DNA of 64,000 nucleotides, from contig CAZNJU010000001.1 in the NCBI GenBank assembly GCA_964573625.1, positions 256,661 to 320,660 of the forward strand, written 5' to 3'. The notes beneath the pieces were generated by a model. It saw nothing but the letters and a program-made list of their open reading frames with translations, was not told the origin of the DNA and made no database searches. Of this stretch, positions 26,089 through 57,218 are shown piece after piece. The DNA comes from Candidatus Woesearchaeota archaeon. Its GTDB lineage: Archaea > Nanobdellota > Nanobdellia > Pacearchaeales > GW2011-AR1. Numbering within the stretch: position 1 is the stretch's first letter; each line of letters opens with the position of its first letter. The position numbers and the translations under genes were made by a program.

Positions 26089-26349
26089 ATGGCATTAGAA
26101 AAGAGACCACTTAAGCATGTTCTTGGTAAACTCGTAGTTACTAAAGAAGGTAAGCGTTTAGGTCTTGTAAAAGACGTTACATTTGAAACAAGAACAGGAG
26201 AACTGCTTCAATTACTCTTAAAAGATGCAACGATATATACTAAAAACCTGAATTTAGAGGTTTCTCAGGATAAAGACACAGTAGTTCCTTATAATTCTAT
26301 TATTGCAATAGGCGATTTCGTGGTTGTTTCTGAAGAAGATCTTACATAA
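26089..26349 (+). CDS. PRC-barrel domain protein
   Basis: Reads LGKLVVTKEGKRLGLVKDVTFETRTGELLQLLL and is 86 aa long. Confidence 0.5.
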   Translation: MALEKRPLKHVLGKLVVTKEGKRLGLVKDVTFETRTGELLQLLLKDATIYTKNLNLEVSQDKDTVVPYNSIIAIGDFVVVSEEDLT

Positions 26350-27477: not shown

Positions 27478-30098
27478 TTTTTATCAATTACTTTTAACTG
27501 CAATTGATGCATTCTCTTGAGGAAATTAGCACGATCTTCCATACTAATAAGATCAGTGTGACTCTGTAATAATAAGGTTAATCCAAAGGGAGAAACCATT
27601 GGAACACGCATAGTTTTTACAGATACTCTCTTTCGTTCAATCCACTCAAGAACAACTTTTGCTTGAGGAACATCCATAAGATCTTCAAATACTTCTCTTC
27701 GAGCCTCTTGCAAAATAGGAAATTCATCGCTCAGTTGCTTAACGCTTGTTAGCAGAAAACTCGAATGAACCTGCTGTTTTCCAACCGATTTCGATCTACC
27801 TTTGTAATTTCTCAAAATCATAAGGCTTCGAGAGGCACAATGTCTAAATCGTCTCTTCAAAACGTCCGTCTTTTCAATAGCTTCTTTCACAATAAGTTCA
27901 ACATTCTTAGACGTCACATATTCAATTATCTTTTTTTCATCGAGTTTTTCAGCACTAATAAAGAAACCATTATCATTAATTCCTAACTCAACGTCACGAT
28001 GTCTAAGACGTGCAGCGGCAAAGGCATATGCACGTGACAGAACATCATTAACACGTCTTCCATACATAGAATGAAAGAAAAGATATTCTTTATCAGAAAC
28101 AAATTTTTCAACTAACAGTGTTTGAGAATCCGGAATCATGGAAAACTGGTGCTGTTCAAGCATGTACTGATAAATCGTATGAGCTATTTCCGGAGAACAT
28201 TCAAGGTATTCTTCCAAGAAAGCAAGACTCTCCTTTCGATTATCTATTCTTTCACGTACAAGTCCGCGCAATCTCCCAATGTCACATGCTAACTCAAAAG
28301 TAAGAGGTAATTGTTCTGAAAACCAGCTTGGAACAGTTGGCTGTCGCGAAACATCTGCTTGCACGTAAGCTTTCATTCCACGTGAAAACAAGTATTGATA
28401 CTTGGCTCCACCCAATACAAATACGTCCCCACGTTTCAAACGCTCAAGAAACGCCTCATCTATTGAACCAACCCCCTCACCTCTTCGACCACCCTTACCA
28501 ATGACGACTTCCACATACCCTTCTTCAGGAATAGTTCCAATATTAGTCATATAAATAATGCGTGCAAGTTTTCCTTTCTTTCCAATGTCTCCTGTCTTAG
28601 CGTCATACCATATCTTAGCATATACATGTCTATGTTCAAGGGCATAATCTCCTGCCAAATAGCTAACAATCGAGAAAAACGCCTCTCGACTTAAGTTTCG
28701 ATAGCAGTAACTCTTACGAATTACTTTAAGCATAGCATCAGCATTCCATACACGTTGAATAGCCATCCCAAATATATGTTGTGAAAGCACATCAAGCGCA
28801 TTTTGAGGTATAGTAATCGTGTCAATCTTCTTATCTCGCATGTTTTTCATAAGAGCAGCACATTCAACCAGATCGTCACGATCAAGAACGATAAACCGGC
28901 CTTTCGGATTCTCATGAAGTTTATGTCCTGCACGCCCAATACGTTGTAAAGCTCGCGCAACACCCTTAGGCGAACGCAACAACACAACAAGGTCGATACT
29001 CCCAATGTCTATACCTAATTCTAAGCTAGTCGAACTAACAACTACCTTCAATTCACCCTTTCTCAATCGTTCTTCTATCTCAAATCTTCGAGCTTTATTC
29101 ATTGAGCTATGATGTGCCCCTATCAAGCCCGTGTATTTTCCAGGGAAATGCAAGTCAAGGTAGTGAATTATCTTTTCAGTAGCATTTCGAGTGTTAGTAA
29201 ATATAAGCGTAGTCTTATGTTCCTGAATTAAATCGTGTAAAATATGATACAGTCTTCTCTGTTGTTCGGGGGCATCGGTCTCCAGCAGATCACGCGAGGG
29301 GCTAATAAGTCCAACATCTATTTTTTTTAATAATTTAACTTCTGCAATAAGACACTCACGTTCACTACCCACCAAAAATCGAGCAATTTCATCCAAAGGA
29401 GCAATGGTAGCGCTCAATCCAACCCGCACAGGATCAATTACACTAATCTCTGCAAGTCTTTCAAGCGTCAGTGTCAAGTGTACGCCTCGCTTATTAGCCA
29501 TCGCATGAATCTCATCTACAATAATAAACTCAAGAGCTTGCAAATTTTTACCAAATATAGGAGCACTCAATACAATTGCAAGACTCTCAGGGGTCGTAAT
29601 AAAAATATGAGGTATCTTGCGTGCTTGTTTCGCTCGTTCACCAGGAGTCGTATCTCCTGTTCTCAATCCAACCCGAATCTCTTGCAAGGTAATCTTCTTC
29701 TTCTCAGCTAATTCGGTTATTTCCTTGAGTGGTTGAACCAAATTAACAGCGATATCATTGCTCAAAGCCTTAAGCGGAGAGATGTAAACGGCATAAATCT
29801 TATTTTCAAGCTCATTTTTACTCGCGAGCTCTACCAAATAGTTGATAATAGCCAAAAAAGCAGTCAGCGTCTTAGTTCCTCCGGTAGGTGCACTCACAAG
29901 AATATTTTTTCTATCGTGAATGTACTTAACAGCGTGCAATTGTGTAGGCGAGAACGCTTTGAATTTACCAAAGAACCACTCTCGCACCAACGGATGCAGT
30001 AGCTCTTTAAGCGCCCTTTCATCGGCAGGTTCAACGTAGGATACGAGGTTCTGTTGCATGGTATGAAAAGCTCCGTGAAGAATAACAATCCGAGCCAA
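27474..30098 (-). CDS. lhr: Lhr-family (Lhr-core) ATP-dependent DEAH-box helicase
   Basis: Motif I SAPTGGTKTLTAFL, motif II DEIHAMANKRG and motif VI-like RIGRAGH. A C-terminal domain of about 400 aa as in Lhr-core brings the total to 874 aa. Confidence 0.7.
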   Translation of the reverse strand: MARIVILHGAFHTMQQNLVSYVEPADERALKELLHPLVREWFFGKFKAFSPTQLHAVKYIHDRKNILVSAPTGGTKTLTAFLAIINYLVELASKNELENKIYAVYISPLKALSNDIAVNLVQPLKEITELAEKKKITLQEIRVGLRTGDTTPGERAKQARKIPHIFITTPESLAIVLSAPIFGKNLQALEFIIVDEIHAMANKRGVHLTLTLERLAEISVIDPVRVGLSATIAPLDEIARFLVGSERECLIAEVKLLKKIDVGLISPSRDLLETDAPEQQRRLYHILHDLIQEHKTTLIFTNTRNATEKIIHYLDLHFPGKYTGLIGAHHSSMNKARRFEIEERLRKGELKVVVSSTSLELGIDIGSIDLVVLLRSPKGVARALQRIGRAGHKLHENPKGRFIVLDRDDLVECAALMKNMRDKKIDTITIPQNALDVLSQHIFGMAIQRVWNADAMLKVIRKSYCYRNLSREAFFSIVSYLAGDYALEHRHVYAKIWYDAKTGDIGKKGKLARIIYMTNIGTIPEEGYVEVVIGKGGRRGEGVGSIDEAFLERLKRGDVFVLGGAKYQYLFSRGMKAYVQADVSRQPTVPSWFSEQLPLTFELACDIGRLRGLVRERIDNRKESLAFLEEYLECSPEIAHTIYQYMLEQHQFSMIPDSQTLLVEKFVSDKEYLFFHSMYGRRVNDVLSRAYAFAAARLRHRDVELGINDNGFFISAEKLDEKKIIEYVTSKNVELIVKEAIEKTDVLKRRFRHCASRSLMILRNYKGRSKSVGKQQVHSSFLLTSVKQLSDEFPILQEARREVFEDLMDVPQAKVVLEWIERKRVSVKTMRVPMVSPFGLTLLLQSHTDLISMEDRANFLKRMHQLQLKVIDKK

Positions 30099-30144: not shown

Positions 30145-30891
30145 TTAATCTTGTCTTTTGTACTGTAGGAGCGTCACACCTAGTTTACTGGCGGGACGAA
30201 TTAAAGGAGTCGAAGACGAATGAAACCTCCAACCAAGCACTCTTTCAGACTCGCTATACATTTTCTTACCCCTAAATCGTTTCGCATCATGGGTAAAACC
30301 AGGGATTTCGACTTTCCTTAGGCGACTAATAGGCACCTCCGTGATTAAAGAAAAGATTCCTCCCCGAGTTAAACGATTACAAGTTTCTTTCACTAAATCA
30401 TTAAATTCCTTTTCTATAGAAGGAAATTCAGCGTATTCTGGATAATTTCCAATTAAAGGTACTGCTGGGAAAAAGAAATAGGCACTTTCAAAAGCACCCA
30501 ATGAAGAAAGGTCAAATCCTCTGCCAAGGTATTCTTGAACAACCTTCATCCTCTTCGAATCATAACCTGCAATATCACCATGAAGGGCAACCAATTCATC
30601 TAAACCGGCATCTATTTTTTGATCGATACCAAATGGAAAAGGTTCAACTACCACTACTTCTCTCGCACCTGCTCTTAAAAAATCGGCAGAACTGACCATT
30701 TCTAATGGACCAATATCTAAAACTCTTTTATCTTTAATCTGGGAAGGATTAACAACCTTGTTGAATAAAGTTGAGTCGTAAATTCCCATTTGGCCTTCCA
30801 AGTAAGGTTTGGTTTTTCTCGTTAAAATGAGGTCTCCAGTCATAGTAAACAGCCTAGAAAGGTGCTCTTCTAGTAATTCTATCATGGTCAT
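30145..30891 (-). CDS. hypothetical protein (weak Rossmann-like VLDIGP segment)
   Basis: 248 aa with no clear family. A methyltransferase assignment is not supportable. Confidence 0.3.
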   Translation of the reverse strand: MTMIELLEEHLSRLFTMTGDLILTRKTKPYLEGQMGIYDSTLFNKVVNPSQIKDKRVLDIGPLEMVSSADFLRAGAREVVVVEPFPFGIDQKIDAGLDELVALHGDIAGYDSKRMKVVQEYLGRGFDLSSLGAFESAYFFFPAVPLIGNYPEYAEFPSIEKEFNDLVKETCNRLTRGGIFSLITEVPISRLRKVEIPGFTHDAKRFRGKKMYSESERVLGWRFHSSSTPLIRPASKLGVTLLQYKRQD

Positions 30892-30955
30892 GACGATACT
30901 GAAGGAGTTTTAAACATTTCCCTATATTTATATAAGTAAATCTCTAAGAAAAGAC

Positions 30956-31258
30956 ATGCCTTCAGTATCGTCAAAAACAAAGGACCGCATCTCAGAACAA
31001 ATATTAGCTTACTTATTCTCCCAATCGCCCGAGCCTCGCTACACAGTTCATATTGCATCATCAATCGCCCGAGACGAAGAGTTCACAAAAGCACTTCTTC
31101 TTGACTTAGAAAAGCGCAAGCTAGTAGTAAAAGTAACAAAGAGTTCTCAAGGCTTCGACTACCTTCGTCGTCAACGCTGGCGTCTCTCAGATGCAGCCTT
31201 CTCAGCATATAATCAGATGTCTAAGCAGAGATCTACGACTTTCATCGATGAAGAGTAA
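30956..31258 (+). CDS. hypothetical small protein, possible winged-helix DNA binding
   Basis: 100 aa with a basic C-terminal half and a predicted helix-turn-helix. Confidence 0.3.
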   Translation: MPSVSSKTKDRISEQILAYLFSQSPEPRYTVHIASSIARDEEFTKALLLDLEKRKLVVKVTKSSQGFDYLRRQRWRLSDAAFSAYNQMSKQRSTTFIDEE

Positions 31259-31264
31259 TCAATT

Positions 31265-31801
31265 TTAACGACTAGACCAGTCATAAACAGAACTAATAAT
31301 TGCTTGTCCTTCCAAAAAAGCATGTGCATGCCACATAAGAAAAGGTTCTATTTCTTTCGGTGCTTCCTTTAGATAGGGTGCTTTCGACTCTGCTTCCCAC
31401 ACATTATCGAATAGTCTAGTAAGGGGATGACCTTTGTTCTTATAGATTTGGCGTACCATATCCGTGCCATTGAAACTTTTCCGGGTTTTTAACACCAGAT
31501 CAATATCCTCTTGTCCAATAATGGGTAAACAAGATTCTTCTCTTAAATCTAATTCATAAAAAGCAGCTAGTAAAACAGAACTTCCACCATAATAAGACAT
31601 TGCAGCACATAATCGAGAAAGACCCTCCTCATGACCTTCTAATTTTTTGCGTTGTAGTACGTTCGACGAAACTTGGGATATATGAGCATTATAATCTTCC
31701 TGACAACGTACACGAAAAAGTATACTCTTTGGGAGTTGAGAGACCCCAGCAATACTAATTAACTGATCTACGGCCTTAGAGGATATTTCAAGTTGACTCA
31801 T
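31265..31801 (-). CDS. hypothetical protein
   Basis: 178 aa with no recognisable motif. Confidence 0.3.
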   Translation of the reverse strand: MSQLEISSKAVDQLISIAGVSQLPKSILFRVRCQEDYNAHISQVSSNVLQRKKLEGHEEGLSRLCAAMSYYGGSSVLLAAFYELDLREESCLPIIGQEDIDLVLKTRKSFNGTDMVRQIYKNKGHPLTRLFDNVWEAESKAPYLKEAPKEIEPFLMWHAHAFLEGQAIISSVYDWSSR

Positions 31802-31873
31802 AAAATAAGCAAGTCAAATCCTATTTAAATCTAACCACAACAATCCTTATAATATCCAAAAATATCAAAAGAT

Positions 31874-32503
31874 ATGGATCCTATAAAAGAAGCATTTCTA
31901 AAAGCAAAGCAAGATATACAGTTTTTGAATGAAAAAATAGACAAATTAACCCAAGAACTAGAAGAATTAAAGCGAACTCTAAATACATCATATCAGTCAG
32001 TTCAGCCAACCAACCAACAGATGATTCCAACACATCAACACCCTCTAGAACACTTAAAAAGCTCAAAAACAAGCTTCTCCACTGGAAATGAAGGGGTTCC
32101 AACCAACCAACCAACAATCCAACCAACCAACCAACGCACTGGAAATGAAGGGGTTCCCGATAAGATCAGCCATCTTGAACGAGTTTCAGAGATCCTAGGA
32201 TCTCTCGATGCATTAAAGAAAGAAGTTCGCATTAAATTTAAGAAGCTTACCCAGCAAGAAATGGCTATATACGGAGCAATTTACCAGCTTCAAGAGCAAG
32301 GAAATATCGTCGATTACACCTTATTAGCCTCAAAACTCAAATTATCAGAGATTTCAATACGTGACTATATTCGAAAAATAGCTACCAAGGGCATCCCTCT
32401 CAACAAAGAAAAAGTCGATAATAAAAAAATTAGGCTCACAATTCCAGAGGATTTGCGCCGAGTAGCAACCCTAGAAACGATTTTAGCTCTCCGCGAGCTA
32501 TAA
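31874..32503 (+). CDS. coiled-coil + C-terminal winged-HTH protein with internal 60-nt direct repeat
   Basis: N-terminal heptads (LNEKIDKLTQELEELKRTL). The tandem repeat actggaaatgaaggggttcc(aa/cg)...ccaaccaaccaac encodes ...TGNEGVPTNQPTIQPTNQRTGNEGVP. The C-terminal wHTH reads QEMAIYGAIYQLQEQGNIVDYTLLASKLKLSEISIRDYIRKI. Confidence 0.45.
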   Translation: MDPIKEAFLKAKQDIQFLNEKIDKLTQELEELKRTLNTSYQSVQPTNQQMIPTHQHPLEHLKSSKTSFSTGNEGVPTNQPTIQPTNQRTGNEGVPDKISHLERVSEILGSLDALKKEVRIKFKKLTQQEMAIYGAIYQLQEQGNIVDYTLLASKLKLSEISIRDYIRKIATKGIPLNKEKVDNKKIRLTIPEDLRRVATLETILALREL

Positions 32504-32575
32504 ATATCACTCCTTTCGGTATACCGAATAAAATAGGGGCTTAGCTATACCTTTTCCTTTCAAACTGTTCTATCA

Positions 32576-32603
32576 AAATTCGTTTTAACGCGAACTTTTG
32601 ACA
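32576..32603. repeat. AAGTTCG-box repeat copy (inverted orientation)
   Basis: aaaattcgttttaacgcgaacttttgac; the reverse complement contains AAAGTTCGCGTTAAAACG. Confidence 0.4.
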
Positions 32604-32914
32604 CTCACTTTTTGATCACTCAGAATCATCGCTTATCAGCGTGGATGATCCCTCACTTTTTGCACAAAAAAGGGCCAACAGTACCCTCTTTTTGAATCAA
32701 AATCCAGTAAATATCACTCACTTTTCACTTCCTCCGCTATAGCTTGCTCATAATCCTCACTTTTCTCTTCTTTTTCCCCCTTTTTGAGGCGTTTTTCCTT
32801 GCCCTTAACTCTCACTTTTGCGTATTTTAGGAGTTTAATACGAACTTCTTCACTAATAAACACTCTCTTTTTCCCATTTCCCTCAGTTATCTCCTCAATC
32901 AAGCCCTCACTTTT
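32604..32914. repeat. six dispersed copies of CTCACTTTT
   Basis: Copies at 32604, 32652, 32717, 32756, 32811 and 32906. They span the intergenic region and the 3' end of the minus-strand wHTH gene. Confidence 0.45.
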
Positions 32915-33403
32915 CTGCTTTATAGCATTTATTTGTCCTCTAACCGTACTTCTCTCTTTTCCAAGTAGCCTGGCTAGATCCTCATAGCTCAACTTCAGGC
33001 CCTCTCCGGCATTCAATAGGGTAAAAATCAATAGTCTCTCATTAGCTGATAGTTGATTCAAAATAGCATATAAATTACCTGTTTGAACAGGTGTTTGAAC
33101 ATCTTCTTCAACATCTTCAACAGCTGTTTGTTTGTCTAAAACACCCGTTTTTTTAAACAGCTGTTTGTTTTTTGCCTCAAAATCAACTAAGCTTAAACCT
33201 TCACGGAGCGATTCAATCTCTTCACGAACCGTCGCTAAATCCAATTTTAGGCTGTTTATCTCATCAAACAGCTGTTTGTCATGAGTATCCAGGTGTTTAA
33301 TCCAGCTTCCAACTTTCTCAAGATCCTTTTTAACTCCAGAAAAACCATGTTTGGTTGCTTCCTCTAATTTCTTATCCTTGTTTCCGAAAATCCATCCAAA
33401 CAT
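32714..33403 (-). CDS. coiled-coil + winged-HTH protein (paralogous architecture to 31874..32503)
   Basis: The start is trimmed to MFGWIFGNKDKK, because the track's extension reads through the iteron array. It has the heptad segment LKLDLATVREEIESLREGL and the wHTH ERLLIFTLLNAGEGLKLSYEDLARLLGKERSTVRGQINAI. Confidence 0.45.
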   Translation of the reverse strand: MFGWIFGNKDKKLEEATKHGFSGVKKDLEKVGSWIKHLDTHDKQLFDEINSLKLDLATVREEIESLREGLSLVDFEAKNKQLFKKTGVLDKQTAVEDVEEDVQTPVQTGNLYAILNQLSANERLLIFTLLNAGEGLKLSYEDLARLLGKERSTVRGQINAIKQKSEGLIEEITEGNGKKRVFISEEVRIKLLKYAKVRVKGKEKRLKKGEKEEKSEDYEQAIAEEVKSE

Positions 33404-33720
33404 AAACACCTTAAAACCCCTGTATTTATAAACTTTACGCCTTTTTACACATTCCAACACATCCTCCAACACACCAAAAAAACACCCCTGTTTAAACAGG
33501 CAAACAGCCCATAAACACCCCTTTTTCAAAAGCAAACAGGCAAAAAACACCTTTAAACAGGGTCAAACACCCCTAGAATAATCGACGATAAAACAGCCCA
33601 ACAGCTGTTTAAACACTCTTGCCTCAATTATCAGTGAGGCGCGAAGCGCCGAACGCGCCCGACAACACAAAAAACACCTGTTTTTAGGGCAATTCACAAG
33701 ATATTTAAACTTCAGTACCC
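33404..33720. repeat. iteron-like array: interleaved AAACAG(G/C) and AAACACC(CCT) short direct repeats
   Basis: There are at least seven AAACAGG/AAACAGC units and at least six AAACACC units in about 300 bp. One copy forms the palindrome AAACAGCTGTTTAAAC. The region is non-coding and lies directly upstream of the wHTH gene. Confidence 0.55.
33622..33661. repeat. 40-bp GC-rich hairpin repeat, copy 1
   Basis: cctcaattatcagtGAGGCGCGAAGCGCCGAACGCGCCCg. The GGCGC-GAA-GCGCC stem-loop is embedded in AT-rich DNA. Confidence 0.55.
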
Positions 33721-33730
33721 TTAACAAAAC

Positions 33731-33892
33731 ATGGTATTAGTTTCAGTAGCCATTTCAGCCGTATTGGCCATCATTTTAGGCATTTTAATCCTCGTATTCC
33801 CAAGGCTATTACGTTGGGCCGTAGGATTTTATCTGCTCATTTTCGGAGTCCTGCAACTTCTAGCACAGGCGTACCCTTCTTTCTCCCCATAA
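33731..33892 (+). CDS. small membrane protein (53 aa), DUF3096-like; not in ORF track (<60 aa)
   Basis: MVLVSVAISAVLAIILGILILVFPRLLRWAVGFYLLIFGVLQLLAQAYPSFSP is an ATG..TAA frame of 54 codons. It has two TM helices with the ILGILILVFP...GxYLLIxGVLQLL pattern. Confidence 0.4.
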   Translation: MVLVSVAISAVLAIILGILILVFPRLLRWAVGFYLLIFGVLQLLAQAYPSFSP

Positions 33893-33952
33893 AAATTCCC
33901 CAACACAGGCCCCTTTAGAAAGGATTAAAAACCAATCAAAACACCCAAAACT

Positions 33953-34339
33953 ATGGAAACAGCAAAAAGAATTAATGAAAAACCATCTCCTTTAGTAATC
34001 GCTGCCGCAGCAGTTGGCGCACTAGGCCTCGTGACCTACGGATTCATCACCCAAAAGCCTGCCCCAGAAAGACCTTCTTTGACAGGCAAGGTTACCTATG
34101 AAAGTCCCTTAAGTTTCAGCGGAGGCTTCGCCTATAGTTGGAGAATTGAGACGCCCGAAGGAGATTCACGTCTTATCGGAACATCAGCAGACGTATATTC
34201 TCCCAAGACCAACCAACCAAAACCATTTGGCCTGGGCGATGAAGTAAAAATCGACCTCAGAGGACTCGATCAAACGTACGAGTACGGGCCAAGAATAACG
34301 GATCTAAAATATGCTTCTATAGTTTCAAAAAACAAGTAA
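33953..34339 (+). CDS. hypothetical exported/membrane-anchored protein
   Basis: An N-terminal hydrophobic segment (LVIAAAAVGALGLVTYGFI) and then a beta-rich domain. It is flanked by the two GC-rich hairpin repeats. Confidence 0.4.
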   Translation: METAKRINEKPSPLVIAAAAVGALGLVTYGFITQKPAPERPSLTGKVTYESPLSFSGGFAYSWRIETPEGDSRLIGTSADVYSPKTNQPKPFGLGDEVKIDLRGLDQTYEYGPRITDLKYASIVSKNK

Positions 34340-34347
34340 TAAAACTT

Positions 34348-34396
34348 CTCAGCTTCGCTTAAATCTTTCAGCACCCATTAAAGTTCGTGTTAAAGC
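34348..34396. repeat. AAGTTCG-box long repeat, copy A
   Basis: ctcagcttcgcttaaatctttcagcacccattaAAGTTCGTGTTAAAgc is about 80% identical to 35417-35466. Confidence 0.5.
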
Positions 34397-34418
34397 CCGC
34401 GAACCCTAAGGAAATATG

Positions 34419-34458
34419 CCTCAATTAAGAGTGAGGCGCGAAGCGCCGAACGCGCCCG
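34419..34458. repeat. 40-bp GC-rich hairpin repeat, copy 2
   Basis: cctcaattaagagtGAGGCGCGAAGCGCCGAACGCGCCCg matches copy 1 at 37 of 40 positions. Confidence 0.55.
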
Positions 34459-34502
34459 GCAACGAGTAGAAAAGGTTAAAAACTATAAATCGATCAAAAA
34501 TC

Positions 34503-34886
34503 ATGCACTCACAAACTAAAACAGGCACAGTAACCCTAGAAGGCAAGACCTTCGAAGTAGAGTTGAATAGGCATCATATCGGTAGAACCTATGGAGAGTG
34601 TGAAAAAGATTGTCCAGCAGGATGGCATATGCCTACCTATCAGCTTTTGCAAGAAATAAGAAATTCAGCAGATAGAGACAAATTTAATTTACTTGAAACC
34701 TCAGAATATGTTCAACAGCCAGATGTTCTCTCAAAAGAAAGAGGGTTAGTTGCAGGGTTTGTTGCGAGTTCGGACGGGGCTATTCTTAGTTGCGCCGCGG
34801 ATCCTAAGACCGCCGATTCGGTACTTGGGGTGCGCTATGTGCGTAAACTTTCTGGAGACCCCATTCCTCGGCACGAGAATTGGTAA
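34503..34886 (+). CDS. hypothetical protein
   Basis: 127 aa with noticeably higher GC than the flanking genes. Confidence 0.35.
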   Translation: MHSQTKTGTVTLEGKTFEVELNRHHIGRTYGECEKDCPAGWHMPTYQLLQEIRNSADRDKFNLLETSEYVQQPDVLSKERGLVAGFVASSDGAILSCAADPKTADSVLGVRYVRKLSGDPIPRHENW

Positions 34887-34950
34887 AATAAGAGTTCGTA
34901 TAAGGTATATTAAGCGAAGTTTTAGAGGGTTTTTAGACAATAATGCGAAC

Positions 34951-35352
34951 TTATTTCTTCAGAATAGGCGGGATTGGTAAGTTTTTCAAGGCTTTTTCTC
35001 CGAATAGGCCTATAAGAAGTCCCCTAAGTCCCCTCTTTGAATCTCGATAATTTGAGTATGCTATTTGATAAGCAATATTTAGTTCCGTTCCTAGTTGAGT
35101 AAACTCCTGTAGTCTCTTAAGCATTTGCTTAGTGCCTCCATAGGTCAGGATGTGGTGGAGAAACTCTTCATGAAATCTCTTAATTTGAAAGTATTCCAAG
35201 TGTAATTTTTTAATTTCTTCAGCTTTTTCTTTCCAGAATTTTAGCCATTTTTCCACATCAAAATCCACCTCCTGATTTCTAAGGCTTAGAAACGGATAAT
35301 ACCTTCCTCGAAAAATTACAGATCCATCACCTAACTCTTCATATTCCTTCAT
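34951..35352 (-). CDS. hypothetical protein
   Basis: 133 aa, basic and helical. Confidence 0.35.
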   Translation of the reverse strand: MKEYEELGDGSVIFRGRYYPFLSLRNQEVDFDVEKWLKFWKEKAEEIKKLHLEYFQIKRFHEEFLHHILTYGGTKQMLKRLQEFTQLGTELNIAYQIAYSNYRDSKRGLRGLLIGLFGEKALKNLPIPPILKK

Positions 35353-35416
35353 CCGTTTATGGGGCGTACATGATTTTTAATCATTTCTATAGTCTGCAAT
35401 ACATGCTAAAACTTTC

Positions 35417-35466
35417 TGCTCTCGCTTAAACCTTTCAGCATACAGTATAAGTTCGTTTTAATAAGA
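35417..35466. repeat. AAGTTCG-box long repeat, copy B (plus short copy at 35517-35540)
   Basis: ctgctctcgcttaaacctttcagcatacagtaTAAGTTCGTTTTAATaag. A second short box, aataAAGTTCGTTTTAATtaaagc, lies 50 bp downstream. Confidence 0.5.
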
Positions 35467-35542
35467 AAAACGGTATGCTAGAACTTGTAAGCGTTAATGA
35501 TAATTTTAAGCAGATAATAAAGTTCGTTTTAATTAAAGCAGG

Positions 35543-35935
35543 TTAACTGTTTCTAAAATATAGGAACGTTCGCTCGACCAAACGACCTTCATCGAATCGA
35601 ACGACTCCATTAAGTTGAGCCATACTAAACTCTGGAGTAATTTCGTACTTTGCAAGATATGTCCAAACAGGGTTCTTTCCCCAACCTCTCCCTTTACGAG
35701 AACTGGTCGGTTCACCTATTTCGTTTCTAATTATGCTTCGATCTCGTGCCTCTAGAGAAATTCCTGTTTCTTTAAAATAATAGGCTCCCGATTCAGAGGC
35801 ATCTACACTTGGAAGTCCAATAGCTGCCCGATCACGTAATTGTTTGAGCTTCTCTATAATCTCAGTTGAAGGCATACCCGAGACTAATGTTAATCCTTCC
35901 AATTCAATAATTCCAGGTGTTCGTACCAATGACAT
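35543..35935 (-). CDS. hypothetical protein
   Basis: 130 aa with no motif. Confidence 0.35.
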   Translation of the reverse strand: MSLVRTPGIIELEGLTLVSGMPSTEIIEKLKQLRDRAAIGLPSVDASESGAYYFKETGISLEARDRSIIRNEIGEPTSSRKGRGWGKNPVWTYLAKYEITPEFSMAQLNGVVRFDEGRLVERTFLYFRNS

Positions 35936-36019
35936 GAATTATTCTCTATACCTTCCTTTTTAAGTGTTTCCAAATCCGCTTAGAGATATATTTTTATAGA
36001 CACTCTTAGCTTAAATTAT

Positions 36020-36781
36020 ATGATAAAATCCCCAATGAAAAGACGGGCAGCCAAACTAGGAGTACGCGCAGCGACCTATTATGCGGTAGGCTTTCCTGCC
36101 ACGGTCGCAACAACCTGGCTTGCAGCTGCTATGTATCCAATCGATGGACAACCGAACATGGTCGGAGTAAACACTTCAAAGTCTTCACAACGAATTCAAC
36201 GGCAATATTGTTTTGGATCAGATTCAGGAGATGTTCTTGTAGAAATTCGCGGCGGGCCGTTCAATACAGAAGTCGCACTCTGTCCGACCGGAGCAAATCC
36301 TTCAGGTCTTGTTTACAGTGCAACCATTCGAAAGCAGTATCCCTTGGTTAATCAATCTATAGTGGATACAAGGTTGTTACCTTCATGGGCTACCCTTCCC
36401 GACAATCTTCCCCAAGATAATTTGATTACAACAGGAGCATGGGGTTGGCCCCTTCGAGCGTTGAAAGGTGTCGAGCGAGACCGATTCGTATATACTTCTG
36501 GTTCGCCTAATCCCTTTGTGCGTCCGCATCTCGAAGATTATGTAACACCTTCTTGGCCAACAATGGGATTAGATATTCGCATGCTTCCTACAAAACCGAT
36601 ACCTACGGGACTAGCACTTGATGCGGCAGTTCACGGTGCAGCACTCGCCATACCTCAAATGTCTTTTGCAGCACTCGCATTACTTCGTAAACAATTTAGA
36701 AAACGAAATGGAGCTTGTCTCAAGTGCGGGTATGATATTACTAGTGTAATGATATGTCCTGAGTGTGGGACCAGGTGCTAA
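36020..36781 (+). CDS. hypothetical protein with N-terminal hydrophobic segment and C-terminal C4 zinc ribbon
   Basis: The C-terminus reads CLKCGYDITSVMICPECGTRC. The gene is Pro-rich and its GC is clearly above the window average. Confidence 0.4.
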   Translation: MIKSPMKRRAAKLGVRAATYYAVGFPATVATTWLAAAMYPIDGQPNMVGVNTSKSSQRIQRQYCFGSDSGDVLVEIRGGPFNTEVALCPTGANPSGLVYSATIRKQYPLVNQSIVDTRLLPSWATLPDNLPQDNLITTGAWGWPLRALKGVERDRFVYTSGSPNPFVRPHLEDYVTPSWPTMGLDIRMLPTKPIPTGLALDAAVHGAALAIPQMSFAALALLRKQFRKRNGACLKCGYDITSVMICPECGTRC

Positions 36782-36842
36782 TCATTCTAAAAAATAATTC
36801 AAATAAAATAAGGTATTCTATCTCAAAATTTATAAATCGTAT

Positions 36843-37322
36843 ATGAGGACTAGTTTTATGAAACATCGAATCTGGAATACAAAACCTCTGCCGAGTTTCG
36901 AAGAAAGACTATCTTTTGCACGTTGGAATAAAAAAGGCAATTGCATTGGCACTGCCTTTTTTTTGGCAGGAATGATTAGACAGGAAGGCATAATCTATCC
37001 AGATAAAGCCTACAGACAGTTTCTAGTTGACCTTCCACGGGTAAACTCTCCAGAGTTATATGGGCTTATCGCCTGGCAGCAAGCATTACACACTTCAAAA
37101 ACCATCAAAACTCCATGCGTCTGGACTGCCCATCTTGGGTTGGTAACTTCAATAGATCCGCTCTTGGTCGCTCATCGTCCTGGTCTCCGGAATTTCTTCG
37201 AAGAAGATGCACCTTTTGAAAGACCTAATACGGTGTACGGTAGCCAGGCAGGTAAACGTAATTTTCTAAGATATTATCGAACACCTTTACAAGAAGAAAT
37301 GTTTACACGTAAGCATGGTTAA
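36843..37322 (+). CDS. hypothetical protein (conserved Cys...His pair; possible thiol hydrolase fold)
   Basis: NKKGNCIGTAFFLAG and a downstream VWTAHLGLV. The fold assignment is speculative. Confidence 0.3.
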   Translation: MRTSFMKHRIWNTKPLPSFEERLSFARWNKKGNCIGTAFFLAGMIRQEGIIYPDKAYRQFLVDLPRVNSPELYGLIAWQQALHTSKTIKTPCVWTAHLGLVTSIDPLLVAHRPGLRNFFEEDAPFERPNTVYGSQAGKRNFLRYYRTPLQEEMFTRKHG

Positions 37323-37387
37323 TGAAATATCGTTAAGTAAATCAACAAACTGAGCCTCTGAGAATCTTTCTTTATTTTTTATTCTTT

Positions 37388-37927
37388 TCATGACATATCG
37401 TTTCTTAAGATTGCTCTGCAGGATTTGTAATATCCTTCAAAATCATTTAGGATTGTTTCAGCAGGTATTTTGTTGGCTTTGGTAAATTCCGCCATCCAAT
37501 CAGCAGTAGTCTGTAGATTTCCATGCGGGTTTAGATGTGCTATAACTTGTCCCCTAAATGATTTAAGTATCTTACGATAATATTCAGGTATCTCTGGTAG
37601 ACCGCTAACTCCTTGATTCATCATTTTTTCAATTACCTCATAAAATGAGCAAACTTCCATGATTACGTATTGCCAAAGCATGGCACTTGGAGAGACCTTA
37701 CCACTTTGAGCAGAAACACGATTTGCTGGAGAAACAAGTTGTGAATGATTCGAGTTAATTACCTTCATATAATCAAGCAAAACATGAACTTTAACATAAG
37801 CAAAATTTAATCGATCATACTTTTTCATAGGTCTAGAATTGTAATAATCTATAACTTCTTGATCTGTCATGTTTCTCAGCTTTTCAGCGAGTTCTTTTTC
37901 CTCTGAACTCTGTTCAGTAGTCATCAA
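37388..37927 (-). CDS. hypothetical protein
   Basis: 179 aa and all-alpha. Confidence 0.35.
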   Translation of the reverse strand: MMTTEQSSEEKELAEKLRNMTDQEVIDYYNSRPMKKYDRLNFAYVKVHVLLDYMKVINSNHSQLVSPANRVSAQSGKVSPSAMLWQYVIMEVCSFYEVIEKMMNQGVSGLPEIPEYYRKILKSFRGQVIAHLNPHGNLQTTADWMAEFTKANKIPAETILNDFEGYYKSCRAILRNDMS

Positions 37928-38024
37928 AAGTTATGTCCTTTCCTCTATTTAGTTTTTACTGTTTTGTATGTGACAAGAAAAACACAAAGGGTAAGCTTGT
38001 TAAGATTAGATAACTGAATTTCTA

Positions 38025-38567
38025 TCAGTTAACTTCAGCTACAACTGCCGGAGGCACTAGGCCGACGAATCTAAACTCATCCATGCCTTTTCGATGTCGT
38101 CCCTTGCATTTCATAGGATCTATACGTTCAAAAGAATATCCTTTAGGCAATGCATACACGTCTGCTCTCTTACGGCGAGACGAAACTCGGTTTATTTTTT
38201 CTATAAAACTGACTTCAAGACCATCCATTCCTGGTCTACCTTCTCTGAAACCGAATTCATAAGCCTTGTCAAAAGGTCGACGTAATTCGTCACCTGACAA
38301 TTCTAGGTATTGTGCCGATGTAAGAGCACCCTCAGCCCATATGTTTGATTGCGGAAGAGCTATCGTTACAAATTCAGCATAAGTAATGTTTGTTCCGAAA
38401 CCAGGAAGAAGATTTGTAAGAACCAACGGAGGATGCACTTGTCTTTTCCCTTCAATAGAATATCCTATATGTAAAGGCCATTCCTTAATCTGCTCAAGAA
38501 CACTTTCAAATTGACCACGCGCGGCGTGATGTGCAAGTCCTATATCAAAGAAAACCCTGTTGAGCAT
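38025..38567 (-). CDS. hypothetical protein
   Basis: 180 aa with no motif assignable. Confidence 0.35.
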   Translation of the reverse strand: MLNRVFFDIGLAHHAARGQFESVLEQIKEWPLHIGYSIEGKRQVHPPLVLTNLLPGFGTNITYAEFVTIALPQSNIWAEGALTSAQYLELSGDELRRPFDKAYEFGFREGRPGMDGLEVSFIEKINRVSSRRKRADVYALPKGYSFERIDPMKCKGRHRKGMDEFRFVGLVPPAVVAEVN

Positions 38568-38646
38568 ATTCTCTTTTCTTTCTGCTGGTTTTTAACTATT
38601 TGTATAATATTCTTCAAAGATAAAATAACGCATTAATCTAGAAATC

Positions 38647-39066
38647 CTATCTTGAAAACCGTGTAAAATCTTCTAGATCGCAAGCATTGTCTCGAGCATA
38701 AGAGATAGCATCACCTATCGCGAGCCCATGAACATATCTTACTCCAGATTCGAGCGAACGAGATTGAGCTACCTCTCTGCGATTCACACGTAAAGAAAAT
38801 AGCGTACCTTGATTATTTAGTGCAATAACATGATACGGCTGACTCTCAGTACCTTTTTCATTAAACCAGGAATATCTGATGACTTTCGGACTATATTTTT
38901 CCTCTATAACAATTATTTTTCGATCAGAAGTTTTCGGAGGAGCGTAATGGCGAGGAGGGCGAATGTTATGATTATGAATAGTCTTAGGTCTCCTTTTGAG
39001 CCTACTGATTTGTTCCTGAGTTTCTGTTCTCTTGCCCTTAGGCAAGTCTAAGACATCGAAAATCAC
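38647..39066 (-). CDS. hypothetical protein
   Basis: 139 aa and basic. Confidence 0.35.
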   Translation of the reverse strand: MIFDVLDLPKGKRTETQEQISRLKRRPKTIHNHNIRPPRHYAPPKTSDRKIIVIEEKYSPKVIRYSWFNEKGTESQPYHVIALNNQGTLFSLRVNRREVAQSRSLESGVRYVHGLAIGDAISYARDNACDLEDFTRFSR

Positions 39067-39118
39067 GCTAATAAAACCGAATGTTGTTATTTAAATTTAT
39101 CCAATTGAAAAATAGAAA

Positions 39119-39538
39119 TTAATGCCAGACAGTAAGAATGGCGCTACCAATAAGGAAGGTGACAAAGTAGTATCCAATATTAAGCGCGTACAGTTTCCAT
39201 GACTTGCCTTCCCAAAGAACCATTCCAAGTGACGTCGTAGCTATAAATCCAAGCCAGCACATGAATCCGATAAACATGCCGTCAAATAATTTGGAGGCAT
39301 TTGCATAAATAACTACATGCGCAAGTACATAGAAAAGAACAAAGGTAGAAACAAGATTAATAAGTATAACTTTAGCCATTCCCTTTGGTTTGTCGCCTTT
39401 AGGAGATATTTTAGCTAGTTTCATCCACATATTTCCAAAGAAGAGCGGGGAATACCAGAGCCATCCAATGATGAATGCAATAACGGTAGAAACAACAATA
39501 GGAAGATAATTGACAGGTACGGGAAACATCATAACCAT
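39119..39538 (-). CDS. DUF1761-like membrane protein
   Basis: Reads GWLWYSPLFFGNMWMKLA with four TM helices. Confidence 0.45.
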   Translation of the reverse strand: MVMMFPVPVNYLPIVVSTVIAFIIGWLWYSPLFFGNMWMKLAKISPKGDKPKGMAKVILINLVSTFVLFYVLAHVVIYANASKLFDGMFIGFMCWLGFIATTSLGMVLWEGKSWKLYALNIGYYFVTFLIGSAILTVWH

Positions 39539-39562
39539 AAAAGTTCTTTTTTATTTATAAAA

Positions 39563-40135
39563 CTATCTTCTTCTACGTCTTCCCAAACTTATTCCCACGA
39601 GTCCTCCAATAGCAAACACACTCGGCACAGGCACATTGGCTGAATTATATGTCGCGTATGTTTTCATGAACGTCTCGCTTCCATCAGGAAATCGTGAAAG
39701 AGATTCATCATACAACCCATGTGCATTCCCGTTAGGCACGTTTCCGGTATTGCCTGGCCAGTTCCCATATGAAAAACCATCTATAACTACGTTATTGAAT
39801 ATATCATACAACTCTATTCTCCCATCGTTGTTTTGCATGCCATCAGGATTAAGGATCATGAGTCGTTGCCCTGGATTAAGAAATCCAAATGAACTTAGCG
39901 ATAATCCACTCGGAGTAGTATCTATTAAATTAAGTTCAATACCATACAGGTTGAATGGTTGCGTCCCAGGGTTGTATATTTCAAACCATTCATCAGAAGG
40001 AGTTACCTGTTTATCATGATTCCAATCTTGTTGAGGATCAACAACTATCTCATTAATTCTAATAGTATCTCCTTTGACAGGGTTTGTAGCAGCAATAAGA
40101 CCTGTAAGACCTAAAGAGATTGCTCGTCCACGCAT
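39563..40135 (-). CDS. lamin-tail-domain (LTD) surface protein with PEP-CTERM-like C-terminal sorting signal
   Basis: An N-terminal signal peptide and an LTD-like core (INEIVVDPQ...WFEIYNPG...IEL). The C-terminus is VPVPSVFAIGGLVGISLGRRRRR, a Pro-rich motif followed by a TM helix and an Arg cluster. Confidence 0.5.
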   Translation of the reverse strand: MRGRAISLGLTGLIAATNPVKGDTIRINEIVVDPQQDWNHDKQVTPSDEWFEIYNPGTQPFNLYGIELNLIDTTPSGLSLSSFGFLNPGQRLMILNPDGMQNNDGRIELYDIFNNVVIDGFSYGNWPGNTGNVPNGNAHGLYDESLSRFPDGSETFMKTYATYNSANVPVPSVFAIGGLVGISLGRRRRR

Positions 40136-40221
40136 ATACCTTTGAAATATTAAATCTATAATTATTTTACTTGCATAAATAATAAACTATTTGTAAAATA
40201 TTATCCTTTTTTATGAAAAGA

Positions 40222-40704
40222 TTACTCTTTCGTAAAATCTCCAACACACAAAGCCAACTTGTCCAGGATTTTTTTAACATCAGCAGTGGCAACACGCGCA
40301 GAATGCGTCCGAAGACCAATATTGAACGAACTTTCAGTATTATTGTAAACACCCACACCAACAAGTAACTGGATGCGTTCCTTATGTCCGAATGGAGGCA
40401 CAGCCCCTACTTCACACCCAGTTTTCTCAAAGACTTCTTCATGTGTTGCCATCCGAATGTCTTTTTTCCATCCCAGTTTAAGTGCAACTTTCTTAGTGTC
40501 GACTTTACAATCAGCAGGAACGTCAACCACAACAAAATCAGTTCCGTTAGTGAACACAATCGCCTTTATTCCTTCTTTCATGCTAAATCCACGGGTTTCA
40601 GCAGCCTGCGCACTTGTTATGACTGGAGCATGTTCTAAGTATTTAGCGCGCACATTATGCTCTTTAAAAATAGACTTTATTCGAGCAACTTCTTCGATTC
40701 CCAT
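40222..40704 (-). CDS. YbaK/ProX-family aminoacyl-tRNA deacylase domain protein
   Basis: Reads KAIVFTNGTDFVVVDVPADCKVDTKKV...GAVPPFGH, typical of the YbaK/ProX trans-editing fold. Confidence 0.55.
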   Translation of the reverse strand: MGIEEVARIKSIFKEHNVRAKYLEHAPVITSAQAAETRGFSMKEGIKAIVFTNGTDFVVVDVPADCKVDTKKVALKLGWKKDIRMATHEEVFEKTGCEVGAVPPFGHKERIQLLVGVGVYNNTESSFNIGLRTHSARVATADVKKILDKLALCVGDFTKE

Positions 40705-40794
40705 AAACGGGCAGCATATTTCTCATTAAATAGTTTACTTGAACTAGATTGTATCTTTCACTAGCTTTTTAAAAGAAGATCAATAGGAAAAGAG

Positions 40795-41163
40795 ATGGCC
40801 GAACTAAACAGCGAGCAAAAAAAAGAAGTTAAGAAAGAAATAAACAAGCAAGTAGCTGAAGCCAAAAAAGAAATTGAAAAAGAAGAGCTTCGCATCCACA
40901 AACAGCTGTTGGAAAAAGCAACAAGAACGGCATCACTATTCGGACAAGAATTTCGCCAACAGACTGCGGCAGCGATTATTGCGGCGTTTGGTTTCCTTAT
41001 AGCCTTAGCATGGAAAGACCTTATTGTGAAGATTGTTGAGCAGTTTACCGCAAGTAATATTCTCACACAATACCCCTATTTTGCCGAACTGTTTTCAGCG
41101 ATTATTGTTACAGGAATTTCAGTGATAGGTATAGTAATAATTTCTAGATGGGCAAAGAAGTGA
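40795..41163 (+). CDS. small membrane protein with N-terminal coiled coil
   Basis: 122 aa with two TM helices. Confidence 0.35.
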   Translation: MAELNSEQKKEVKKEINKQVAEAKKEIEKEELRIHKQLLEKATRTASLFGQEFRQQTAAAIIAAFGFLIALAWKDLIVKIVEQFTASNILTQYPYFAELFSAIIVTGISVIGIVIISRWAKK

Positions 41164-41184
41164 TTAAAAAAGATAACTCGCACG

Positions 41185-41655
41185 TTAATGGTGATGTTCT
41201 GATTCTTTGAGGGTTTCATTTATTCCAATTATCTTAATCTTGAAGATAAGTGTTTTTCCTGCAAGAGGATGATTAAGATCAATAGTGATTATATTTGCAT
41301 CAGCAGCAACAATGTGCACAGGAACAGCCTGTCCATCAGGTGTTCGCATCATAAGAGTCATACCGGCCTTTGGTTTTTGATTTCGAGGAAGGGTAATTTC
41401 AGAAGCAGATATCTCTCTCTTGAGTTGTTCATCATATTCGCCATATGCCTCGGCAGCAGGAATCGTAATCTCCTTTTCTTCATCCTTTGCCATTCCAATA
41501 ACGGCATTATCAAACCCAGGTATTACTTGCCCAGCCCCTGCTTCGAACTCAAGAGGGTGTGAATGATCTCCATGACTGGAACTGTCAAAGACCTCTCCGG
41601 TTTCAAAGCGCCCCTCATAATCAACCGCTACCTTATCTCCTTTCTTTACAGTCAT
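41185..41655 (-). CDS. FKBP-type peptidyl-prolyl cis-trans isomerase (SlyD-like, with IF insert)
   Basis: Reads GDKVAVDYEGRFETGEVFDSS...LEFEAGAGQVIPGFDNAVIGM with a C-terminal HHH. Confidence 0.7.
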   Translation of the reverse strand: MTVKKGDKVAVDYEGRFETGEVFDSSSHGDHSHPLEFEAGAGQVIPGFDNAVIGMAKDEEKEITIPAAEAYGEYDEQLKREISASEITLPRNQKPKAGMTLMMRTPDGQAVPVHIVAADANIITIDLNHPLAGKTLIFKIKIIGINETLKESEHHH

Positions 41656-55912: not shown

Positions 55913-56109
55913 AAGGAAAGAAAGTCAGTTCCCTATTAATAAGTGAGTATAACGAAGACAGCATCCGTGTTTCGCCTCTTGACGGAGACTACCGCACAAG
56001 ACGTCATCAGCTTGACTTCTGTGTTCGGAATGGGAACAGGTATTTCCTGATGACTGTGACCGTCTTCAATCCATCATCATACCAACCATTTAAAAAGGTT
56101 TCGTTACAC

Positions 56110-57175: not shown

Positions 57176-57218
57176 CTCTGCAAAGCTTTAAAACTCCCTA
57201 GTAGATAATTCCCGTAAG

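Follow-up and report, generated by a model that had tools for sequence, protein, structure and literature searches.

We analyzed a 64,000-nt stretch of DNA (the window; contig CAZNJU010000001.1 of assembly GCA_964573625.1, positions 256,661 to 320,660; 38.6% GC) from a DPANN archaeon of the Pacearchaeota/Woesearchaeota type, whose Lhr helicase is closest to those of so-named metagenome-assembled genomes (MAGs; 67–77% identity). Between the genes for Lhr and FKBP lie three genes for winged helix-turn-helix (wHTH) proteins, namely wHTH100 and the coiled-coil proteins ccHTH209 and ccHTH229, followed by an array of small genes whose junctions carry short motifs, M1 and M2, and a 47-nt GC-rich repeat, M3, with a hairpin core (Table 1). 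The stretch from 30.9 to 39.1 kb had earlier been taken, from the sequence alone, for a repeat-rich island of orphan genes and a candidate integrated plasmid or virus remnant (the original prediction).

To place the region among its relatives, the window proteins were compared by tblastn with 80 Lhr loci, 58 of them archaeal; for the genome relatives, 10 kb on either side of Lhr were covered, and all relatives (loci designated L plus a number) are metagenome assemblies, in which strain chimeras are possible. About 45 genomes share the order DP1, Cdc6, (origin), 26324, metallophosphoesterase (MPE), Lhr, wHTH100, ccHTH209, ccHTH229, often DUF5654, DUF3096, 2–7 kb of variable content, and FKBP, and the anchor order beside Lhr recurs on many metagenome contigs. 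Because of this conservation, the left 3 kb (30956–33892) are core to the lineage. FKBP follows the array in at least 11 relatives, at 2.1 to 7.3 kb from DUF3096, and the place of the gene for the tyrosine recombinase XerA, past both the array and FKBP, is conserved in L003, L098, L176, and L211, the order XerA ... FKBP–array–DUF3096–ccHTH229 of the last being a recurrent one.

The content between these anchors is variable. The genes at 31265–31801, 33953–34339, and 34951–39066 have no homologue in the flanks of the Lhr loci (tblastn), and homologues of those at 30145–30891 and 34503–34886 were found there in L033 only. By inspection, the variable zones of relatives consist of recurring small families in shuffled order, including DUF5654, DUF3096, and other small membrane proteins, as well as VapBC-like, RelE/antitoxin-like, and MazF/AbrB-like pairs, an HNH protein, and DUF2283; two paralogous VapBC-like operons inside L046 have little DNA in common besides M3. 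Selfish nucleases occur at the equivalent locus of relatives: an HNH/zinc-ribbon protein (fam21) recurs in the arrays of L007, L008, L055, L079, and others, usually paired with a small AbrB-like open reading frame (ORF), and in L211 the two ccHTH genes are separated by a LAGLIDADG gene (10680–11111).

Comparison of close relatives resolved this variability to single genes, which are replaced between junctions. The 7.2-kb contig L202, which came to light because it carries a near-identical homologue of the 38647–39066 gene, encodes a ccHTH229 that is 97.8% identical to that of the window, and the backbones of the two share approximately 88% nucleotide identity; several window genes are nevertheless replaced by unrelated ORFs or absent (Table 1), whereas the spacers 34887–34956 and 35403–35535 and both M3 copies are retained at 88–100% identity. 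One break between the two sequences falls right after GCGCCCGGCAAC, the 3′ end of M3 (34463). Between L176 and L079, a replacement begins a few bases past M3 and ends at GTTCG (M2), and an 862-nt insertion is flanked by 12-nt direct repeats. L009 and L033 share short conserved junction islands between non-homologous segments. The pairs L021/L046, L035/L036, and L117/L168 are too diverged for breakpoint placement.

M3 comprises a 21-nt hairpin, NN-GA-GGCGC-GAA-GCGCC-GA-N′N′, with the flanks AGCCWCAATAA and GCGCC-CGAC. A 26-mer of the repeat occurs twice in the window (0 expected), its 22-nt core is identical in nine related loci, and 45 copies with at most 4 mismatches are present in Lhr loci. 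In a pattern scan of metagenomes, M3 was found in at least 120 stretches; among the matches listed, approximately 90 are of low GC with the full element, many of them near ccHTH229 or Lhr. We aligned 139 distinct copies as the basis of a covariance model (CM), which recovered the two copies of the window only (the next match scoring 14 bits). In the 58 archaeal loci, all 60 matches of the model lie on the strand opposite to Lhr and on the array side. At least one near-canonical copy is present in 26 of the 38 loci with enough flanking sequence, and the CM adds diverged copies in several more. By contrast, the M3 pattern is absent from 2.9 million viral contigs, a covariance search of Rfam 15 over M3, M1, and M2 returned nothing at gathering scores and chance-level matches only at E values up to 10, and the core string is absent from the searchable literature.

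The hairpin is supported by covariation. The pair −3:15 is U-A in 85 copies, G-C in 13, C-G in 11, A-U in 4, and a wobble in 7, and the pair −4:16 is G-C in 73, A-U in 26, and G-U in 7. Cells altered on both sides number 55, compared with 15.7 ± 3.2 in shuffles (0/500), the true register scores 0.162 against at most 0.033 for slid controls, and in the CM-fitted alignment both-side changes are seen in five of the seven pairs. More than one compensated version of M3 occurs within the same genome (in L079, L211, and L176), and the variants are scattered polyphyletically over the ccHTH229 tree; for this reason, co-evolution with one DNA-binding protein is an unlikely source of the covariation, and co-evolution of a factor and its site was rejected as its cause. 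Two alternative foldings were rejected: the stem GGCGCG/YGCGCC, chosen by RNAalifold, has no compensatory support, and, by inspection, the upstream GCCTCA/TGAGGC stem of the window copies is not kept in the commoner GCCACA variants. The center of M3 is GCGAAGC, inside GGCGC-GAA-GCGCC, and its invariant GA/GA positions presumably form tandem sheared G·A pairs. Of the two strands, the sense strand of the array genes is the one that carries the stable, purine-rich form of the hairpin. M3 is a very stable, covariation-supported hairpin, undescribed in Rfam and the searchable literature. Diverged versions occur in L001 (317–379, GA-GCGCC-GAA-GGCGC-GA) and L026 (6823–6884, GA-GGCC-GAA-GGCC-GA), in which the stem is altered yet still pairs and the GA flanks and GAA loop are retained.

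In many junctions, M1 (GCTTAAAYCTTTCAGCA, often doubled) and M2 (AAGTTCGTWTTAA) precede M3. The distance from the end of M3 to the next same-strand ATG is 40–48 nt in the largest class of copies, so that M3 stands directly upstream of a motif resembling the B recognition element (BRE) and TATA box. On its other side, a same-strand gene ends within 200 nt upstream of M3 in 75 of 121 copies, M3 typically following approximately 100–115 nt after the stop codon, while 28 of 121, including window copy 1, lie in divergent regions with no upstream same-strand gene. The motif of the fourth repeat family, AAAGGNTTAAAAA, is found 22 nt before the ATG of island genes; since core genes at 11.5, 15.2, 53.2, and 54.3 kb have it at the same distance, it is the general promoter motif of the organism. 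A repeat family under TAGAAAGGATTAAAAAC was rejected for being the ordinary promoter motif of the organism. The repeats are real and far above chance; rather than being particular to this island, they are cis elements conserved throughout the lineage.

M2 has 6 matches in the window, compared with 0.79 expected, all within 31967–35532. A role as a general terminator was considered and rejected, as all 6–7 matches in the 64 kb fall within 32.0–35.5 kb. Two of them are coding, the motif encoding EVRIK at non-equivalent positions of both ccHTH paralogs (32223–32235 and 32835–32847), either by coincidence or as a possible binding site. In 33 of 43 relatives, the M4 motif GTGTTTAAACAG is present no more than 400 nt upstream of ccHTH229, which makes the M4 repeats a candidate operator or promoter of that gene.

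The two ccHTH proteins are distant paralogs (hhalign 96%), as originally proposed. The ccHTH229 family comprises 2162 detected proteins, with a Pfam domain in none of the 120 homologues listed, and ccHTH229 itself belongs to no curated family, its matches to Pfam HTH models being all sub-threshold. Its AlphaFold2 model (predicted local distance difference test [pLDDT] 71) has a 70-residue helix, a disordered linker, a winged helix, and a C-terminal helix, a predicted fold consistent with ArsR/SmtB/MarR-like proteins. Sequence searches of PDB with ccHTH209 and ccHTH229 yielded noise only. In ccHTH209, a CCAA-rich tandem repeat and a 21-nt exact direct repeat (32098–32135 and 32080–32157) encode a repeated TGNEGVPTNQPT linker, the length of which differs among relatives (proteins of 209–280 aa).

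Table 1. Features of the locus, from the replication genes on the left to XerA on the right.
Feature	Position	Strand	Description	Relatives
PolD DP2	19545–22985		Pfam scan of flanks	
PolD DP1	22982–24526		Pfam scan of flanks	
Orc1/Cdc6	24523–25728	−	Pfam scan of flanks	
ORB-type dyads	25849–25861 (TTTCCACTGGAAA); 25790–25804 (ATTTCCTATGGAAAT)		Upstream of cdc6 (ORB, origin recognition box)	
AT-repeat tract	25864–25958		30% GC; beside ORB-type dyads	
PRC-barrel protein	26089–26349		Pfam scan of flanks	
MPE	26782–27477		Pfam scan of flanks	
Lhr helicase	27474–30098		Pfam scan of flanks	
Variable slot, Lhr/wHTH100	30145–30891	−	248 aa; no Pfam match	Homologue only in L033 (41%) and L202 (63%, partial); absent from the other ~45 syntenic loci
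wHTH100	30956–31258	+	Small winged-helix protein	tblastn matches in 47 Lhr loci, always adjoining Lhr; 48–66% identity
Variable slot, wHTH100/ccHTH209	31265–31801	−	178 aa	No homologue in any related locus; unrelated 166-aa ORF in L202
ccHTH209	31874–32503	+	Coiled coil, low-complexity linker, C-terminal winged helix	Same position in 45–46 related loci
Inverted M2 pair, overlapping	32576–32597		AAGTTCGYNTTAA; between convergent 3′ ends of the two ccHTH genes	
ccHTH229	32714–33403	−	Coiled coil and ArsR/MarR-like winged helix; anchor gene, divergent from array	
M4 repeats	33477–33551		AACACCCCTGTTTAAACAG units, 32-nt tandem, upstream of ccHTH229; Tandem Repeats Finder score 101	
M3 copy 1	33620–33666	+	Hairpin 33634–33654, GT-GA-GGCGC-GAA-GCGCC-GA-AC; flanks TGCCTCAATTA, GCGCCCGACAAC; CM R1 69.7 bits	
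DUF3096 membrane micro-protein	33731–33892	+	First array gene	Kept in at least 22 relatives
Array gene	33953–34339	+	128 aa; N-terminal hydrophobic segment	Only in close relative L202 (83%)
Complete junction module	34340–34502	+	M1 34357–34373; M2 34381–34393; M3 copy 2; BRE/TATA-like motif 34470–34483	
M3 copy 2	34417–34463	+	Hairpin 34431–34451; CM 67.4 bits	
Cassette gene	34503–34886	+	127 aa	Unrelated 104-aa ORF in L202; 52% homologue in L033 array
Junction spacer	34887–34956		Inverted M2-like pair (34892–34903, 34942–34955)	91% identical to L202; genes on either side differ
Cassette gene	34951–35352	−	133 aa	Unrelated 105-aa ORF in L202; homologue family at 35–48%
Junction spacer without M3	35403–35535	+	M1-like motif; M1 35424–35440; M2 35449–35461 and 35520–35532	88% identical to L202, between non-homologous cassettes
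Cassette gene	35543–35935	−	130 aa	Absent from L202 (35543–36781, two genes, replaced by one 143-aa ORF); 44% homologue in equivalent array of another MAG (L211)
Cassette gene	36020–36781	+	253 aa; Ala/Gly/Pro-rich; C-terminal CxxC-N11-CxxC (CxxCGYD...CPECG)	Absent from L202
Cassette gene	36843–37322	+	159 aa; predicted divergent NlpC/P60-superfamily Cys-His hydrolase; fold pLDDT 88.8; invariant C34 and H97	
Cassette gene	37388–37927	−	179 aa	Clean presence/absence versus L202 (687 nt versus 6 nt); homologue family at 30–57%
Two co-directional genes	38025–39066	−	180 and 139 aa; no PADLOC, PHROG, or Pfam match	Only very close relatives (68–88%)
Right end of variable zone	39119–41655		DUF1761, lamin-tail-domain protein, YbaK-like, DUF5654, then FKBP (Pfam)	
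FKBP	41185–41655		Pfam; conserved right anchor	
XerA, archaeal tyrosine recombinase	44392–45198	+	Pfam; NF040815 267 bits	

The interval 30956–39066 holds 14 ORFs, or 15 if 30145–30891 is counted, and of the 14 only the DUF3096 micro-protein, correctly recognized in the original prediction, is above the Pfam threshold (E 2.7e-11). Blank in Pfam, the genes are not orphans: when the seven proteins of 34951–39066 were concatenated and searched against a library of 1.8 billion representative proteins, all seven had homologues, each with near-identical relatives (83–100%). The proteins of the genes starting at 34951, 36020, 36843, and 37388 belong to families at 30–57% identity, while those starting at 38025 and 38647 have close relatives only. 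The zinc-ribbon and Cys/His proteins of the original prediction are also there. The former, 36020–36781, with its terminal cysteine pairs read from the sequence, has a full-length homologue (35% identity) surrounded by bacterial-type genes on contigs of 70% GC, and a further homologue adjoins a DUF1501 gene; this company suggests that the gene was gained from bacteria. A look-up of the exact protein returned nothing on record. The latter, 36843–37322, is predicted to have a papain-like fold with conserved catalytic Cys and His, as in NlpC/P60 proteins of clan CA. In an episymbiotic archaeon, such a product could target the host cell wall or be a toxin.

On the left, the region adjoins replication genes. 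The intergenic region 25729–26088, directly upstream of orc1/cdc6 with the genes for PolD DP1 and DP2 behind it, is the probable replication origin (oriC), and an ORB-type dyad like those at 25.8 kb is also present in L009 (at approximately 14.7 kb). Because the ORB dyads and the AT tract map to 25790–25958, the studied region lies 5–13 kb to one side of the probable origin, and the sense strand of the array genes would be the lagging-strand template for a fork leaving oriC at 25.8–26.0 kb. M3 itself was rejected as an ORB (type TTCCA-N-TGGAAA), as the true dyads are those at 25790–25958 by cdc6 and M3 is unrelated in sequence and present in one orientation only. On the right, FKBP, XerA, and ribosomal proteins are encoded, and tRNA genes are confined within the window to 46.4 and 56.7–57.3 kb. 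A 97-nt Rfam tRNA match at 57218–57314 (+), unreported by ARAGORN, adjoins tRNA-Leu and tRNA-Arg near the 5S rRNA gene (55953–56067) and is probably an intron-containing tRNA.

The best reading of these data is that the region is a native, fast-changing cassette hotspot beside the origin, integron-like but not an integron, and the local copy of a feature common to Pacearchaeota/Woesearchaeota-type DPANN archaea rather than an integrated element. A conserved anchor formed by Lhr, the small wHTH protein, and the two ccHTH paralogs lies about 7 kb to one side of oriC/cdc6. Next to it comes an array of small, individually promoted genes that ends near FKBP, with XerA beyond; the array comprises membrane micro-proteins, lineage-restricted genes, one or more genes that appear to come from bacteria, and, in relatives, toxin–antitoxin (TA)-like pairs. 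M1, M2, and M3 separate the genes, M3 abutting the BRE/TATA of the next one. We propose, with a probability of roughly 0.6, that the junctions are jointly places of cassette exchange, for which homologous exchange is the simplest route, and punctuation of expression in which M3 is recognized by a protein. Cassettes would turn over by recombination at the junction modules, most likely by homologous exchange in which strains living together trade DNA through their junction copies, since no other DNA is sufficiently conserved for this. The same module would end the upstream unit and position or control the next promoter, with the M3 hairpin as the protein-recognized part, the neighboring ccHTH proteins as the obvious candidate binders, and the M4 repeats before ccHTH229 as a putative control site of that gene.

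Several observations weigh against this interpretation. At the 15-mer level, 12 of 38 related loci lack M3, and it is also wanting in several junctions, such as 34887–34956 and 35403–35535. In turn, the long low-GC contigs L114 (at 1988), L184 (2614 and 4967), and L104 (6103) carry M3 with none of the 30 neighboring proteins of the window detectable; from these copies without anchor genes it follows that M3 is not strictly tied to this locus, and it occurs also in other contexts or more distant lineages. Breakpoints are precise in two close pairs only and looser in a third, in assemblies that may be strain chimeras. The stretch from 35.5 to 39.1 kb carries no junction motifs and may turn over by ordinary insertions and deletions. 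Finally, no enzyme or binding protein is tied to the junctions, the ccHTH proteins showing a generic winged helix only, and M3 could act either as DNA or as RNA.

Three other accounts of M3 were considered. M3, with M1 and M2, might act in RNA, as a 3′-end hairpin that terminates or stabilizes the upstream cassette transcript in the manner of repetitive extragenic palindromic (REP) sequences and bacterial interspersed mosaic elements (BIMEs), or as a small RNA. The 75 copies that follow a same-strand gene, the GA-containing hairpin on the sense strand, and the occurrence of M2 after stop codons on both strands are in line with such a role, but the 28 copies in divergent regions have no same-strand gene upstream, no U-run follows the hairpin on the sense strand, no Rfam family matches, and an A-rich tract just upstream would place the transcription start inside the hairpin, all of which makes an RNA element unlikely. 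We likewise give little credence to M3 as a double-stranded operator or upstream activating site for ccHTH229, ccHTH209, or wHTH100, in which case the turnover would be a matter of ordinary indels in a permissive region. An inverted-repeat core at a fixed place upstream of BRE/TATA, adjoining three conserved wHTH genes with an ArsR/MarR-like fold, and the near confinement of M3 to the locus would suit an operator; the invariant GA/GA positions, however, break the dyad symmetry while the outer positions stay complementary through all four Watson–Crick combinations, the differently compensated versions in one genome favor base pairing over factor–site co-evolution, and M1, M2, and the breaks at junction edges are left unexplained.

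In the third account, M3 is a site similar to attC or to the ends of IS200 and REP elements, whose folded single strand, exposed on the lagging-strand template beside oriC, would be recognized by a site-specific recombinase (XerA, an unlinked HUH enzyme, or another protein), so that cassettes enter and leave at its 3′ edge; the locus would then be a new system of cassette capture guided by a hairpin. A covarying hairpin with conserved, putatively single-stranded flanks, its homogenization within genomes, and the orientation of all 60 copies on what would be the lagging-strand template are what such a site would have, as are the breaks at the M3 3′ edge, the direct repeat around one insertion, the conserved position of XerA beyond the array, and a cassette content in which, as in integrons, TA-like pairs and small proteins of the membrane or secreted type abound. 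Yet no recombinase gene was detected with Pfam within 30.1–41.7 kb, and the sole Phage_integrase protein of the window, XerA, lies 5 kb away and is of the housekeeping archaeal type (NF040815, 267 bits against a cutoff of 220); at 268 aa and with no extra domain, it scores 204.6 bits, split in two stretches, with the integron integrase model TIGR02249 (cutoff 265). A simple scan for attC core sites (complementary R″ RYYYAAC and R′ GTTRRRY, 57–141 nt apart) found 0 pairs in 33.4–39.2 kb, the stem of approximately 9 pairs is too short to imitate a recombination site for two monomers, both strands carry cassettes, which have promoters of their own, and many junctions have no M3. A dedicated recombination site is therefore doubtful to us. 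The broader proposal that Pacearchaeota-type DPANN archaea carry an origin-proximal, integron-independent gene-capture platform, in which the single-strand M3 hairpin marks the cassette boundaries and is the substrate of a recombination activity for which XerA, the two coiled-coil wHTH proteins, or an unlinked enzyme might be responsible, is similarly speculative and improbable; were it true, tiny genomes would gain a dedicated way to sample genes, bacterial ones included.

The original prediction of foreign DNA drew on composition and gene content. The genes at 33953–34339, 34503–34886, and 36020–36781 are indeed the three most GC-rich of the 70 window genes (0.452, 0.448, and 0.467; z +1.9 to +2.6), but the excess resides mainly in codon positions 1 and 2, with third-position z scores of only +1.6, +1.1, and +0.3, and in 36020–36781 it stems, at those two positions, from the Ala/Gly/Pro-rich composition of the protein. 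Tetranucleotide and dinucleotide deviation peaks at 31.5–35.5 kb (z up to +3.4), whereas 35–39 kb does not stand out from the rest of the window (z −0.4 to −1.2); the part that deviates in composition is the one with conserved gene order, and the variable part is host-like. Comparison of synteny divides the island in two: relatives carry the genes of 30956–33892 in the same context, while 33953–39066, 30145–30891, and 31265–31801 are accessory and differ even from the relative of ~88% identity. In place of the empty site of a provirus or island, 30956–33892 is kept in ~45 relatives and the remainder differs gene by gene. The supposed convergent pair at 37388–39066 consists of three co-directional minus-strand ORFs, and its suggested toxin or defense function found no support, as there is no PADLOC or Pfam match and 37388–37927 is present or absent independently in the comparison with L202. 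Nor are there border signals: we found no direct att repeat spanning the block borders and no tRNA target at them, the repeats present being internal junction motifs. Searches of PHROGs gave two marginal matches of unknown function only, PADLOC gave none, and neither relatives among IMG/VR viral contigs nor a PLSDB plasmid match were detected. At least one gene (36020–36781) does look horizontally acquired from bacteria. The variable genes use the host promoter motif, at the 22-nt spacing seen in core genes.

Hence, despite Pfam-blank and GC-rich genes, local tetranucleotide deviation, content at 33.9–39.1 kb that most relatives are without, and one bacterial-looking gene, the view that 30.9–39.1 kb is one 8.2-kb remnant of a plasmid or virus, equipped with a regulation or replication module of its own and perhaps a toxin or defense pair, is very improbable, and for 30.9–33.9 kb largely refuted, because the gene order is conserved (in the very part that deviates in composition), the repeats are lineage-wide, the variable part has host promoters and host-like composition, and neither border signals, a flanking integrase included, nor mobile-element relatives were found.

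A native cassette hotspot would matter because DPANN archaea have very small, host-dependent genomes in which the gain and shuffling of accessory genes are poorly understood. The locus is a fixed, origin-adjacent place of single-gene exchange between strains, involving a wall-hydrolase-like enzyme and a bacterial-type gene among others, and the exchange is framed by a junction module that is conserved across the whole order and has an undescribed, covariation-supported structured element as its core. With a 21-nt hairpin, three uncharacterized conserved wHTH proteins, and a nearby XerA as the objects at hand, it bears on whether archaea have non-integron cassette systems or a new kind of expression punctuation.

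Among known systems, the closest are integron cassette arrays and clusters of attC sites lacking integron integrases (CALINs), including archaeal ones (Ghaly et al. 2022, PMC9668308). Here as there, the array differs in content from one relative to the next, its genes are small and for the most part either unknown or of TA type, and between them stands a structured repeat that always has the same orientation; the likeness extends to a conserved divergent gene heading the array and to evidence of cross-domain gene gain. The locus differs in that it has no IntI (only XerA, 5 kb away and below the cutoff) and no R″/R′ core sites, its element has a conserved sequence and a stem of only 9 pairs, its cassettes are individually promoted and occupy both strands, and the head gene encodes a wHTH protein rather than a recombinase. 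With REP/BIME sequences and the hairpin ends of IS200/IS605, the substrates of REP-associated tyrosine transposases (RAYTs) and TnpA, M3 shares a GC-rich extragenic hairpin with conserved flanks that is strand-specific and homogenized within a genome; M3, however, clusters at a single locus instead of being spread over the genome (64 kb hold 2 copies), its host is an archaeon, and neither the window nor the loci showed an HUH transposase. The d(GCGAAGC) mini-hairpin, reportedly the work of Hirao and colleagues, is exactly the core of M3, which differs from it by tandem G·A pairs, two covarying pairs, conserved flanks, and a defined genomic position. GCGNAGC is an ultra-stable DNA mini-hairpin (PMC13037366). 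Lastly, the flexible (replacement or additive) genomic islands of streamlined free-living bacteria are alike in their fixed position, conserved flanks, strain-level swapping, and host-like composition, whereas here genes are exchanged singly, and a dedicated junction module, which has a structured core and is conserved across the order, delimits each unit.

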